NCBI GenBank assembly: GCA_964291395.2
Contig: OZ219856.1
Location: 224,001-288,000 of the forward strand
DNA length: 64,000 nt
Origin: Alphaproteobacteria bacterium
GTDB taxonomy: Bacteria; Pseudomonadota; Alphaproteobacteria; UBA2966
Direction: 5' to 3'
Shown here one piece after another: positions 9,378 through 13,006 of the stretch. Position 1 is the first letter of the stretch, and every line of letters begins with the position of its first letter. A model generated the notes under the pieces. That model saw nothing but the letters and a program-made list of their open reading frames with translations. It had not been told where the DNA came from and searched no databases. A program made the translations under genes and the position numbers.

Positions 9378-9676
9378 CGTCAGATCCCTTCGGCTTCCGC
9401 CTCCGCCGGTCTTCGTAAGTCTGTCGGCGAGAAGGTACAAACGTAAGCGATCGACGTATTTTGGCAAACAGTGCGGCGGGGTTGGGGTGGGATCGGTCTC
9501 CTCGTACATCGGCTCGAGGCTGCGCGAATGATCTTCTGGGCTGGCTGGTCGTCATCCCTCCGTCAACTGCACCGACTTGTCCAACGGCGTCCAACGGCGC
9601 GGCAGCAATGGCGATCCCTGCCACGATCAACACCCTGCGATGACGGGCGTCCTTAAGCGGGAATCTCGCCCTCCGT

Positions 9677-10225
9677 CTACTCAGATAGGAAGTCCTTCAC
9701 CTCGGAGATCGCCTTCTCGACTTCCATTTCGGAATACTTGGGCTTCAGAGCCATCACATGCTTGGCAAGTTTCCTGTCGTCTTCAAATTCGTCCTGCGGC
9801 GCGTGTCGGCGCAGATAGGTGATCGTAGAAACGAGCTCCAGGCCTTTCGCCGTTCTATTCCCGAAAGCCGCCAATACTTCGTCGATGGCTGCCCGGTTTT
9901 GCTTCAAAAACTCTCGCCCCTTCCCGATCATTCGTTCAGTGTGCTTGCCGGGTTCGATCAGGTAATGGTTGTCCCGACTGTCATAACGAATCGTCGCGCC
10001 ACTGCTGTTTGCAATTACATCCAAATCACCGGCGAGACTGATCGAATACGGCCCATAGGTATAGAAGGAAAAACGATAGCCCGTATCGACGCCTCCCAAT
10101 TCCTGGATGAGATGCACTTTCTTCTGAAGCGCCTTCTTTCCGAGCTGCTGGCGGTGCCGCTTGGCTTGGTCGATCAGAAATGCGACCAGAGCATATTGAT
10201 CGATCTTTCCCGTTATTCCTGTCAT
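9677..10225 (-). CDS. YwgA/Panacea(SocA)-like protein, putative partner of the HD dNTPase
   Basis: ATG after GGGGAC RBS. GKKALQKKVHLIQ...YRFSFYTYGPYS...LELVSTI...LKPKYS pattern of YwgA/DUF4065/DarG C-terminal-like proteins. Confidence 0.75.
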   Translation of the reverse strand: MTGITGKIDQYALVAFLIDQAKRHRQQLGKKALQKKVHLIQELGGVDTGYRFSFYTYGPYSISLAGDLDVIANSSGATIRYDSRDNHYLIEPGKHTERMIGKGREFLKQNRAAIDEVLAAFGNRTAKGLELVSTITYLRRHAPQDEFEDDRKLAKHVMALKPKYSEMEVEKAISEVKDFLSE

Positions 10226-10321
10226 GATGAGTCCCCTAAATTCTCCGTCCATGTCGGACGGTCGCCTCGGCATCCCGGCGATTTCCCTCTGGCACGTAGA
10301 GTCGGCGCTGGTTGACTCTGA

Positions 10322-11515
10322 TCAGTCCGGCAACGACGGGAGACAGCGTCTGTAGAGGTACTGAACGCTGGCGCCGCCCGAAGTGCGCCATACCTTGATC
10401 TCCTCCGATCCCGACTTGTACCAGGACTTCTCGGCGTCGCGGACGACACAGCCGTGCGGTTCGAGTTTATCTGCGAGCTCCTCTACGTCGCTTATCTCAT
10501 CGTCGGTGACGATTTCGGGAGTTGCGAAGACCATCCGGTAGTGTTTTCTGGACGTGAGGATTTCACCGTGATCGCCTGCCTTTCCTTCGGCAATTAGACC
10601 GAGCACCTTCCAGTCATCCCATTTGAGATAATCGGCGACCGCGGCAGGAGACGGAAATACGCCGCCCGTGCTCGCAAGCAGGTCCTTCAAACACTCGATC
10701 AGGTGATAGTCGTAGATGGTCCGCGTCTTGTGGAAATAGAGCTGCGTAAACATCATAAAGCGAGCGATCAGCAGTCCTTCGACAGCATGGACGCCGTCCT
10801 CCTCGACGCCGATGTGGTGACCTTCCGTTTCAGGGTCTGGGCAGAGGCGCAAGGTATGGACCACTCTGTCTAGGTCGTATCGCCCGTACTGCACGCCGGC
10901 GTGATAGGCATCGCGCAGTAGGTAATCCATCCGATCGGCATCCATCTGTCCGGAGACGAGGTCCTTCCAAACCAACACACCTGCCGAGTGAGCCGGTGTC
11001 TCAAAGATTTCGAGAATGTCCTTGACGTGAATCCCGTTTGCTCTCGACTCCGGGTGGTTCTCGATTAGATCGTTCAGACACAGTCTCAACGCTGCGGCCG
11101 AGTAGTCCTCGTGCTCGTATCGGTTGGAACTGCCGGGCTTGAGGGGCAGGAGTTCCTCGGCCGCATGTGAGAACGGACCGTGACCAAGATCGTGCAGCAA
11201 GGCTGCTAGGCGCATAATTCTCCTCTGGCGCCCCAAGCTGGCGTCGTCAAATCCGTAATCTCCGCTGCAAAGGACGTTCCGGCTTCGGCGCAGCAACGCG
11301 TCGAACATTCGTGATGCGACGTGCATGACGCCGAGCGAATGCCCGAATCGGGCATGTGTCGCGCCAGGATAGACCATGTCGGTCCAGCCGAGTTGACGAA
11401 TCCTGCGGAGTCGCTGAAAAACCGGTTGGTTGATCACGTCCCATTCGAGTTGATTCAGGCGAATGAATCCGTGAACGGGATCCCGGATCTCATACGGCTC
11501 TAACGGGTCGCTCAC
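10322..11515 (-). CDS. HD-domain phosphohydrolase, SAMHD1/YwfO-like dNTP triphosphohydrolase; C-terminus probably frameshifted
   Basis: IRDPVHG, FQRLRRIRQLG, VYPGATHARFGHSLG, ALLHDLGHGPFSH, HEDYS, MDADRMDYLLRD, QLYFHKT. Confidence 0.9.
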   Translation of the reverse strand: MSDPLEPYEIRDPVHGFIRLNQLEWDVINQPVFQRLRRIRQLGWTDMVYPGATHARFGHSLGVMHVASRMFDALLRRSRNVLCSGDYGFDDASLGRQRRIMRLAALLHDLGHGPFSHAAEELLPLKPGSSNRYEHEDYSAAALRLCLNDLIENHPESRANGIHVKDILEIFETPAHSAGVLVWKDLVSGQMDADRMDYLLRDAYHAGVQYGRYDLDRVVHTLRLCPDPETEGHHIGVEEDGVHAVEGLLIARFMMFTQLYFHKTRTIYDYHLIECLKDLLASTGGVFPSPAAVADYLKWDDWKVLGLIAEGKAGDHGEILTSRKHYRMVFATPEIVTDDEISDVEELADKLEPHGCVVRDAEKSWYKSGSEEIKVWRTSGGASVQYLYRRCLPSLPD

Positions 11516-11545
11516 GCTACTTCCCAGGGAAACACCTAGCAACCA

Positions 11546-11574
11546 AATTTGTTCACGATTTGTACCAATGTCAA
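11546..11574 (-). promoter_or_regulatory. Possible sigma70 promoter of the HD cassette (TTGACA-17 nt-CAAATT)
   Basis: Perfect -35 and weak -10 in the AT-rich intergenic region just upstream of the GTG start. Confidence 0.35.
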
Positions 11575-11689
11575 GATACAAGATGTTGAGGTCACAGCTA
11601 TCACGACTGCCAATTTGTAGCAATCCGCGTCAAGTGACCGACACGGAAACGGTTGATGCCGTTCTCGATGTTTTCGGACCGGCCGATCA

Positions 11690-13006
11690 TCAACCGAACA
11701 GCACTTCCGGCAGCCACAAGGCCAGTTGCGGAAACATCAGGAGGCAGCTCAGGCCGATGAGCTGGATCACCATGAACTGGACCATTCCGGCGTAAATGTC
11801 GCTGAGCTCCCAGCTCGGAACGACGCCCTTGATGTAGTACGCGGAGAGGGCGACCGGGGGTGACAGCCAGGCGGTCTGCAGACACACGGCAACCAGGGTG
11901 CAGAACCACAGAATGTCGATTCCGAGCGCTTTCACGAGGGGCAGCACGATCGGCACGATGATGATGACGATCGGCACCCACTCCAACGGCCAGCCCAGCA
12001 CGAAGATGAAGCCGAGCAGGGTCAGCAGGATGACCATCGGATTGAACTCCAGGCCCAGCAGGGACTCGGCGATCATCGTGGCGGTGCCGAGTCGCGAGAA
12101 CACCGCGCTGTAGAGGTTCGATCCCACCACCAGGATGGAGACCATGCTGGACGTGAGGATGGTCCGGTAGGCCGCCTGTTTCAGACCCTCGAGCGTGAAG
12201 CGCCGATAGAGGACGGTCAGCACGAAGGCGCCGAAGGCGCCCATCGCCGCGGCGTCGGTCGGGGTCGCGAGACCCCCCAGGATGCTGCCGAGCACGGCCA
12301 GAATCAGTACCGCGAGGGGAATGATCCCGAAGAACAGCTCCCGGACCATCTCGAGGGCCGACTTCGCCCGCTCTTCGACCGGCAGGGCCGGGCCCAGGGC
12401 GGGATTGACGTAGCTGCGAATCAGGGCGTAGGCGGTATACAGCCCGGCCAGGACCAACCCCGGCATGACGGCGGCGGCAAACAAGTCCGTGATCGGGACA
12501 CCGACGATGGGCCCCATCACGACCAGCATGACGCTCGGCGGGATAAGCATGCCGAGCGTCCCGCCCGCGGCGATCGCGCCCGCGCTCAGGCGGATGCTGT
12601 AGCCGCTTCTCTCCATTACCGGGCCGGCCATCACGCCGAGGATCGTCACCGATGCGCCCACGACGCCCGTGGCGGCGGCGAACAGCGTGGCCGTCGCCAG
12701 GACGGCGATGTAGAGAGAGCCCTGGATCCCCGCGAGCAGCAGCCGGAAGCCGTTGAACAACCGGTTCATCAGCCCCGCCTGTTCCAGGAGATAGCCCATG
12801 AAGAGGAACAGCGGCACGGCGGCGAACAGCGGCTCGCTCATTACCTGAAAGGCGTGCAGGACCATCAGATAGAACACCGGGGCGCCGAACCCGATGACGC
12901 CGAAGACGATCCCGAGGAAGATCAACGTGAACGAAATCGGAAAACCGACGCAGATGCCGATGAATAGAGCGGCGAGCGAGACGAGTCCGAGGGTCTCGGA
13001 ACTCAT
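11690..13006 (-). CDS. dctM: TRAP transporter large permease (DctM)
   Basis: AVPLFLFMG, GTLGMLIPPS, LSPPVA. Hydrophobic; start overlaps the dctQ stop. Confidence 0.93.
   Translation of the reverse strand: MSSETLGLVSLAALFIGICVGFPISFTLIFLGIVFGVIGFGAPVFYLMVLHAFQVMSEPLFAAVPLFLFMGYLLEQAGLMNRLFNGFRLLLAGIQGSLYIAVLATATLFAAATGVVGASVTILGVMAGPVMERSGYSIRLSAGAIAAGGTLGMLIPPSVMLVVMGPIVGVPITDLFAAAVMPGLVLAGLYTAYALIRSYVNPALGPALPVEERAKSALEMVRELFFGIIPLAVLILAVLGSILGGLATPTDAAAMGAFGAFVLTVLYRRFTLEGLKQAAYRTILTSSMVSILVVGSNLYSAVFSRLGTATMIAESLLGLEFNPMVILLTLLGFIFVLGWPLEWVPIVIIIVPIVLPLVKALGIDILWFCTLVAVCLQTAWLSPPVALSAYYIKGVVPSWELSDIYAGMVQFMVIQLIGLSCLLMFPQLALWLPEVLFG

Follow-up and report, generated by a model that had tools for sequence, protein, structure and literature searches.

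We analysed a two-gene cassette in a 64,000-nucleotide stretch of alphaproteobacterial DNA (assembly GCA_964291395.2, contig OZ219856.1, positions 224,001 to 288,000; hereafter the window, with positions counted from its first letter). It consists of a gene encoding a phosphohydrolase of the HD type (the HD gene) and, directly downstream, a gene encoding a small YwgA-like protein (the partner gene). An initial annotation, made from the letters and the translated open reading frames (ORFs) alone, had proposed a horizontally acquired system in which the small protein controls a hydrolase of deoxynucleoside triphosphates (dNTPs) during phage infection. The pairing of the two genes proved to be conserved across many phyla, in bacteria as well as archaea, and both genes are under purifying selection (pairwise ratios of non-synonymous to synonymous substitution rates, dN/dS, of 0.09-0.12 for the HD gene and 0.10-0.19 for the partner gene). 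A role of the cassette in defence or as a toxin-antitoxin (TA) system is plausible.

Organization of the cassette

The features at the locus are:

10222..11515, minus strand: HD gene, SAMHD1/EF1143-type HD phosphohydrolase, predicted dNTP triphosphohydrolase; true frame of 431 codons
10322..11623, minus strand: HD ORF as it stands in the window assembly, where two omitted bases break the frame
9677..10225, minus strand: partner gene, 182 amino acids (aa), predicted N-terminal winged helix and helical bundle, YwgA-like and DarG-C-terminal-domain/Panacea-like
10222..10225, minus strand: ATGA overlap of the HD stop codon (TGA) and the partner start codon (ATG), given the two extra bases from independent contigs
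11516..11689, minus strand: AT-rich leader from the dctM stop to the HD start, presumed promoter region
9400..11800, no strand: low-GC islet holding only the HD and partner genes, from sliding GC content and GC content at third codon positions (GC3)
10368..10369, no strand: assembly error 1, causing the apparent frameshift in the 3' end of the HD gene
10251..10252, no strand: assembly error 2, in the last HD codons

Comparison with homologues places the likely start of the HD gene at the GTG at 11515. The partner ORF spans 9677..10273 and its likely start is the ATG at 10225, which is preceded by AGGGGA and yields the 182-aa protein. In the repaired frame the HD gene ends with a TGA at 10224-10222 that overlaps the partner ATG at 10225-10223, which suggests translational coupling of the two genes; the spacers between them in close homologues are 6 to 25 nt. 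The motifs that had been quoted for both proteins were all found in the ORF translations.

The composition of the cassette is foreign. GC content drops from ~0.68 to 0.52-0.58 across ~9400-11800, with a value of 0.52 over 11400-11799, where the leader lies, and GC3 is 0.63 for the partner gene and 0.685 for the HD gene versus 0.83, 0.90 and 0.81 for the flanking genes. The initial annotation was therefore right that both genes, and the region upstream of them, are more AT-rich than their surroundings. The flanks were also as described: a Beta_elim_lyase gene (ltaE-like, threonine-aldolase-like) lies on one side and a DctM/DctQ/DctP tripartite ATP-independent periplasmic (TRAP) transporter on the other. 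No consensus promoter was found in the scan upstream of the cassette (0 promoter-like sites), the terminator scan returned one terminator-like site, located inside the partner gene and no more than in shuffled sequence, and the search for flanking direct repeats as marks of insertion gave nothing beyond short, chance-level repeats.

The frame break is an assembly error

When aligned with intact homologues, the HD protein of the window changes frame, residues 1-391 being read in one frame and residues 389-430 in a second one. We compared Logan contigs from four runs (X1-X4) of four studies over window positions 9600-11700 and found an extra base at two sites: i) behind 10368 in X1-X3 and behind 10369 in X4, a site (10368-10369) that is also covered by the alignment to homologue DNA; and ii) behind 10251 in all four runs. 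Reading through with an X at both breaks gives a protein of 431 aa that agrees in 381/431 columns with L016, the nearest of the homologues with an intact gene. With the frameshift traced to the assembly and the conserved columns kept, the HD gene is intact in the organism. The frame repair that the initial annotation had called for thus concerns a break that is real in the window and absent from the organism. The candidate interpretation of the HD gene as a pseudogene was ruled out by the extra bases in 4/4 runs, and further apparent frameshifts in the source genome may be artefacts as well.

An HD protein of the SAMHD1/EF1143 family

The HD protein scored above the gathering cut-offs of the Pfam domains HD (36 bits, cut-off 22) and HD_assoc_2 (34.5 bits, cut-off 23.1). 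Its sequence matched the solved structures 2hek (E 2.6e-46, spanning residues 45-387) and 2o6i (E 5.4e-40), as well as 2q14 and 9mr6, and many SAMHD1 entries (E about 1e-23). We take 2o6i to be EF1143, a characterised dNTPase, and HD proteins of the SAMHD1/EF1143/2hek type to be presumably of the COG1078 type. Residues H59, H108-D109, H112, H117, E120, H135-E136 and D192/D194/D197, among others, are invariant across 31 HD homologues and are kept in the window, where the HD protein matches every column that is conserved in at least 90% of these homologues, the mis-assembled tail excepted. The columns kept include the metal ligands of the H...HD...D motif and a His-Glu dyad. The models of the Dgt type matched in the motif region only and far below their cut-offs: the PADLOC dGTPase model with E 1.6e-9 over residues 64-170, TIGR01353 with 34.3 bits versus a cut-off of 152, and NF041026 (antiphage_dGTPase) with 19.8 versus 400, which places the protein outside the Dgt-type families. 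Judged by these matches, the HD gene product is a member of the SAMHD1/EF1143 family with its predicted catalytic residues intact, in line with the SAMHD1-like label that it had been given at first sight, and it most likely hydrolyses dNTPs.

The partner protein is related to the antitoxin domain of DarG

Among 209 candidates, 94 homologues of the partner were retained at E <= 0.001, most of them 180-196 aa in length, and several carry the name 'uncharacterized protein YwgA' given by the Joint Genome Institute (JGI). Bacillus subtilis ywfO-ywgA presumably has the same gene order, as the initial annotation proposed; what supports this parallel is the naming by JGI. We found no functional study of YwgA in the literature searched under YwgA/YwfO and COG3465.

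The match to the Pfam family SocA_Panacea (PF13274, DUF4065) remained under the cut-off (E 0.026; 15.9 versus 25.7 bits). The DarG models of PADLOC (4e-10) and NCBIfam (1.1e-8) were matched in their C-terminal part or third only, the latter with 34.7 bits versus a cut-off of 250. A profile of 30 members of the partner family, compared to the sequences in the PDB, recovered 7yk3_B with E 1.5e-8 over positions 33-176 of 185. We then modelled the partner with AlphaFold (AF2) from 25 sequences (predicted local distance difference test, pLDDT, 94.2; predicted TM score, pTM, 0.90), and Foldseek related the model to 7yk3_B/D, the DarG fragment in the DarTG complex, with E about 1e-5 and TM 0.69-0.73. 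In VIA-align the match to 7yk3_D reached Z 16.7 (root-mean-square deviation, rmsd, 3.3 Å; 167 of 187 residues aligned), whereas the next matches were winged-helix regulators with Z 9.7 or less over residues 1-113 only; the DarG fragment in 7yk3 was the only strong structural relative of the model.

Profile and predicted fold thus show homology, over the whole length of the partner, with the toxin-binding C-terminal domain of DarG, and by this homology the partner is a stand-alone member of an antitoxin-domain superfamily. Its relation to Panacea is a remote one, running through the DarG C-terminal domain; according to a published statement that cites Deep et al. 2023, DUF4065 proteins are homologous to the DarG domain that inhibits DarT (PMC13621843). 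The antitoxin-type part of the earlier 'YwgA/Panacea-like' label is thereby borne out, but a direct assignment to Panacea is not. The family libraries gave no match to a macrodomain or to a nucleotidyltransferase (NTase) domain in the partner and, since it lacks a macrodomain and has the HD gene rather than DarT as a neighbour, the partner is not a DarG.

In three class-level genomes (G032, G070, G085) the partner-like match lies in ORFs of 348-359 aa and makes up their C-terminal half; these ORFs may be DarG-like fusions. Fusions of HD and partner were not found among the longer relatives, where the sole match was a 377-aa partner relative with a Macro domain (P0095), a blank that counts as weak evidence.

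The pair is conserved across phyla

Two collections of loci were used to establish how often the genes occur together: i) a partner-anchored set of 48 loci from species-representative genomes that were scanned with the partner alignment; and ii) an HD-anchored set of 201 evenly drawn alphaproteobacterial genomes, in which HD genes of the full-length type were recovered at E <= 1e-30. The partner-anchored loci derive from Alphaproteobacteria, Bacillota, Chloroflexota, Armatimonadota, metagenome-assembled genomes (MAGs) labelled Myxococcota and Atribacterota, Nitrososphaerota and a Bathyarchaeia MAG. The HD gene adjoins the partner gene in 43 of the 48, and lies directly upstream on the same strand in 42; two of the five loci that lack it end before any upstream DNA on the contig. 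The order is reversed, partner then HD, in the Bathyarchaeia MAG (L057:2352-4339). In the class-level set, 16/201 genomes had the HD gene and 16/201 a partner-like match; the ten genomes with both had them adjacent, with the partner downstream, in 10/10 cases. Among 41 relatives, five full-length HD genes were recovered, all five with a YwgA-like ORF directly downstream. The co-occurrence that the initial annotation had predicted was thus found, and like the genes of a type II TA system the two form an adjacent, co-directional and tightly spaced pair (43/48 loci, ATGA overlap).

Patchy distribution, transfer and loss

The HD-partner family is patchy (16/201 genomes of the class) and, together with the foreign composition of the cassette, this supports the proposed horizontal acquisition. 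In the HD tree the alphaproteobacterial clade that contains the window ('type 1') covers several families. Nearly identical HD genes were found in a Myxococcota-labelled MAG and in a Candidatus Atribacter (Atribacterota-labelled) MAG (L046, L060), nested among Bacillota with terminal branches of about 0.075; one of the two is preceded by BREX genes, the other by CBASS-like genes. Such near-identity suggests a recent transfer between phyla.

The genus of the window was sampled with six genomes. G000 has a type 1 pair as in the window, a divergent 'type 2' pair occurs in both G001 and G002, and neither gene was found in G003. G005 carries an intact type 2 pair (L077) and, between ltaE and dctM as in the window, a type 1 locus in which ~1030 bp spanning the HD domain are deleted while the partner is intact (L018; 78% identity). 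The synteny with ltaE and dctM is shared by G005 only, the other genomes of the genus matching dctM elsewhere at 66-68% identity. G004 contains an orphan type 2 partner (L076) with no HD gene detected in the surrounding 8 kb. Within the genus the HD gene was therefore lost twice while the partner was kept, and the reverse, an HD gene kept without its partner, was not seen among the six genomes.

A further locus shows a related arrangement. In L017 (763-2304 and 3115-3987) the HD gene lacks its first ~148 codons and is followed by an intact partner gene, and directly upstream of the truncated gene there is a transposase-like ORF with Transposase_29 and helix-turn-helix (HTH) matches.

Gene neighbourhoods

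For 47 distinct loci, a crude greedy call yielded 263 flanking ORFs, which were scanned with Pfam; PADLOC was run on the 132 ORFs from L039-L063 (24/47 loci), the remaining loci being covered by Pfam only. At least 10 of the 47 loci have an unambiguous defence system at a distance of 4 kb or less:

L028: McrBC
L043: BREX PglX/PglZ/BrxA
L046: BREX PglZ/BrxL
L045: SIR2-HerA
L047, L049: type I restriction-modification (R-M)
L054: Wadjet JetC/JetD
L060: JAB and SAVED-HNH (CBASS-like)
L061: AbiEi/AbiEii (AbiE)
L062: restriction endonuclease-methyltransferase (REase-MTase)

Other loci have PIN/ParE toxin genes, DNA methylases, transposases, a group II intron or prophage lysis genes nearby. The proximity to defence genes is suggestive and falls short of a demonstrated enrichment, because there was no matched control.

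A second HD paralogue was observed in Nitrosopumilus (L063:5562-8052), between a thymidylate kinase gene and a gene of the amino-acid-kinase family, which is a nucleotide-metabolism context.

Relation to known systems

The closest functional precedent is Clover, a two-gene operon with an HD dNTPase as effector that defends by nucleotide depletion (PMC12265719). On its own the dNTPase CloA is toxic; its partner CloB, an NTase of the Pol-beta type, restrains it by synthesizing the inhibitory nucleotide p3diT (PMC12265719). Because the dNTPase is toxic by itself and restrained by the product of its neighbour, Clover provides a tested precedent for the logic of a gated dNTPase. It differs from the cassette in two respects. 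CloB is an NTase, and no Pol-beta-type NTase was found as partner in the cassette; instead the partner is predicted to be non-enzymatic, with a winged-helix plus helical, DarG-C-terminal-domain/Panacea fold, and the restraint would be one of protein on protein. CloA, moreover, is described as similar to the anti-phage dGTPase of Shewanella (PMC12265719), whereas the HD protein of the window scores far below the Dgt-type models. The single-gene anti-phage dGTPases likewise are HD-superfamily triphosphohydrolases that were proposed to starve the phage of dNTPs (Tal et al. 2022, as cited in PMC12265719), but the HD protein here is of another subfamily, matches them in the N-terminal motif region only and has an obligate-looking partner. 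A 2026 survey of dGTPase architectures has no such partner in its abstract or its section on domain diversity.

With SAMHD1, EF1143 and the Aquifex protein 2hek, the HD protein shares the HD plus HD-associated architecture (E 1e-23 to 2.6e-46) and the metal and catalytic residues; unlike SAMHD1, it has no SAM domain and has a downstream partner gene. With DarTG the cassette has in common that the partner aligns over its whole length with the DarT-binding domain (7yk3), but the macrodomain is missing and the neighbour is an HD hydrolase instead of the ADP-ribosyltransferase DarT. The PanAT systems (PMC8832971) resemble the cassette in that a small antitoxin-type domain is paired with many unrelated toxins, although the partner in the window is below the Pfam cut-off for Panacea. 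Table sd01 of that paper contains a putative toxin cluster, pT33/T34, described as 'HD domain-containing protein' with the CDD name YdhJ, which lies beside Panacea proteins and is marked as not tested; its order is toxin then antitoxin, with spacers of -4 to +23 nt, and it comprises at least five rows (Ammonifex, Desulfofundulus and three Caldicellulosiruptor; PMC8832971). Two of our loci (L042, L056) share the genus Desulfofundulus and the gene architecture with this cluster, which may belong to the same family. The main text of the Panacea paper (PMC8832971) mentions neither 'HD domain' nor 'phosphohydrolase', and the same holds for the main text of the NetFlax paper. A pairing of HD and Panacea-type proteins has thus been catalogued before and was never tested; the conserved module is well supported here, and its function is what we infer.

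Function of the pair and competing explanations

We assign a probability of about one half to the reading that the cassette is a horizontally acquired, coupled pair of a dNTPase and an antitoxin-like partner that acts as a gated, TA-like defence by nucleotide depletion. In such a system the HD enzyme, most likely a dNTP hydrolase, would serve as effector ('toxin'), and the DarG-like partner would most likely bind it directly and hold it in check. Phage infection would release the enzyme from its partner and, once freed, the enzyme would collapse the dNTP pool and thereby stop the replication of phage DNA. The dNTPase activity, the physical binding, the direction of control and the defence role are all parts of this scheme that we infer. 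The decay in G005 and G004, where the HD gene was lost and the partner kept, is counted in its support. A more far-reaching version is put forward tentatively: the YwgA/DarG-C-terminal-domain-like protein may sense phage and serve as a protein-based safety lock on a SAMHD1-like dNTPase. An antitoxin fold would then control the prokaryotic enzymes most closely related to SAMHD1, and the pair would be an immune module for nucleotide depletion that is ancient, widespread and common to bacteria and archaea (Nitrososphaerota included).

Nucleotide depletion is an antiviral strategy common to animals (SAMHD1) and bacteria (dGTPase, dCTP deaminase, Clover). To our knowledge, the safeguarding of the depleting enzymes is known for one bacterial system only, Clover, where it is achieved via a small nucleotide. 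If the reading is true, a DarG/Panacea-fold protein gate on a SAMHD1-family enzyme would represent a second and different solution to the safeguarding problem, the uncharacterised YwgA family would gain a function, and the Panacea network would be extended by a 'toxin' of the enzyme type whose target is the dNTP pool.

Several observations weigh against a gated defence system. The neighbours of the cassette in the window are metabolic genes and include no defence genes, and the count of defence systems at the other loci is a raw one without a matched random control. A number of loci have housekeeping contexts: gyrB-like/ClpS/ClpA (L027, L030), valyl-tRNA synthetase (ValRS; L039, L048), NrdR/RibD (L031) and GatD/E (L059), and further loci lie in contexts of polysaccharide or sugar biosynthesis. 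Of the 16 HD-bearing genomes of the class, six have an HD gene without a detectable partner in the stretch examined, all six on long branches of the tree. Partner relatives were not found on plasmids, phage genomes or IMG/VR contigs at the sensitivities used. The truncated HD genes in other MAGs may in part be assembly errors, as in the window. Finally, Firmicute HD proteins of the YwfO type have been discussed as housekeeping enzymes (PMC4993169, PMC3814617).

The last point leads to the main rival, a housekeeping module for the dNTP pool or for nucleotide sanitation, in which the YwgA-like protein would be a regulatory subunit (an allosteric modulator or a stabiliser) with no role in immunity or addiction. 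The papers just cited regard the HD proteins of the YwfO type as conserved enzymes with a housekeeping role, both in Firmicutes and in the minimal genome of Mycoplasma. The purifying selection on both genes, the absence of relatives from the plasmids and phages searched and the loci close to core genes or genes of nucleotide metabolism (NrdR/RibD in L031, thymidylate kinase beside the second HD gene of L063, and L027, L030, L039 and L048) all fit such a module. The patchy distribution, the foreign composition and the near-identical cross-phylum copies do not, nor do the recurrent placement in BREX, SIR2-HerA, Wadjet, CBASS-like and R-M clusters, the loss of the HD gene with retention of the partner in G005 and G004, and the fact that the only solved homologue of the partner is an antitoxin domain. 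We consider a housekeeping module possible and, on the whole, unlikely.

Clearly less probable is that the HD enzyme uses another substrate (for instance modified or non-canonical NTPs, RNA 5' triphosphates or a signalling nucleotide) and that the module does not deplete dNTPs. Specificity is not readable from sequence and the closest solved relative, 2hek, was deposited as a hypothetical protein, but SAMHD1 entries are among the sequence relatives and 2o6i is EF1143, a dNTPase. For the YwfO homologues a review by Danchin proposes the hydrolysis of 5' triphosphates or modified nucleotides; against this, the HD motif and the His-Glu dyad, which according to the Clover paper are required for dNTP hydrolysis (PMC12265719), are invariant in the family.

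It is just as improbable that the partner mainly binds DNA through its winged helix to autoregulate the operon and makes no contact with the enzyme. Residues 1-113 of the model do align with regulators of the PadR/MarR type (Z 8-9.7; Foldseek E 0.02-0.2), but winged-helix matches at Z 8-10 are common background, and the alignment with the DarG C-terminal domain covers the whole length at a much higher score (Z 16.7, 167 residues). The DarG domain exerts its inhibition through binding to the toxin (Deep et al. 2023, as cited in PMC13621843), and neither an operator-like repeat nor a consensus promoter was found upstream of the cassette.

Origin of the sequencing runs

The runs that contain window positions 9600-11700 carry mostly sponge metagenome labels and in a few cases marine metagenome labels; no RNA data set was listed among them. 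The run with the variant position of the extra base (X4, behind 10369) represents a strain that is ~98% identical, with 37 substitutions, mostly transitions, reported for the variant.

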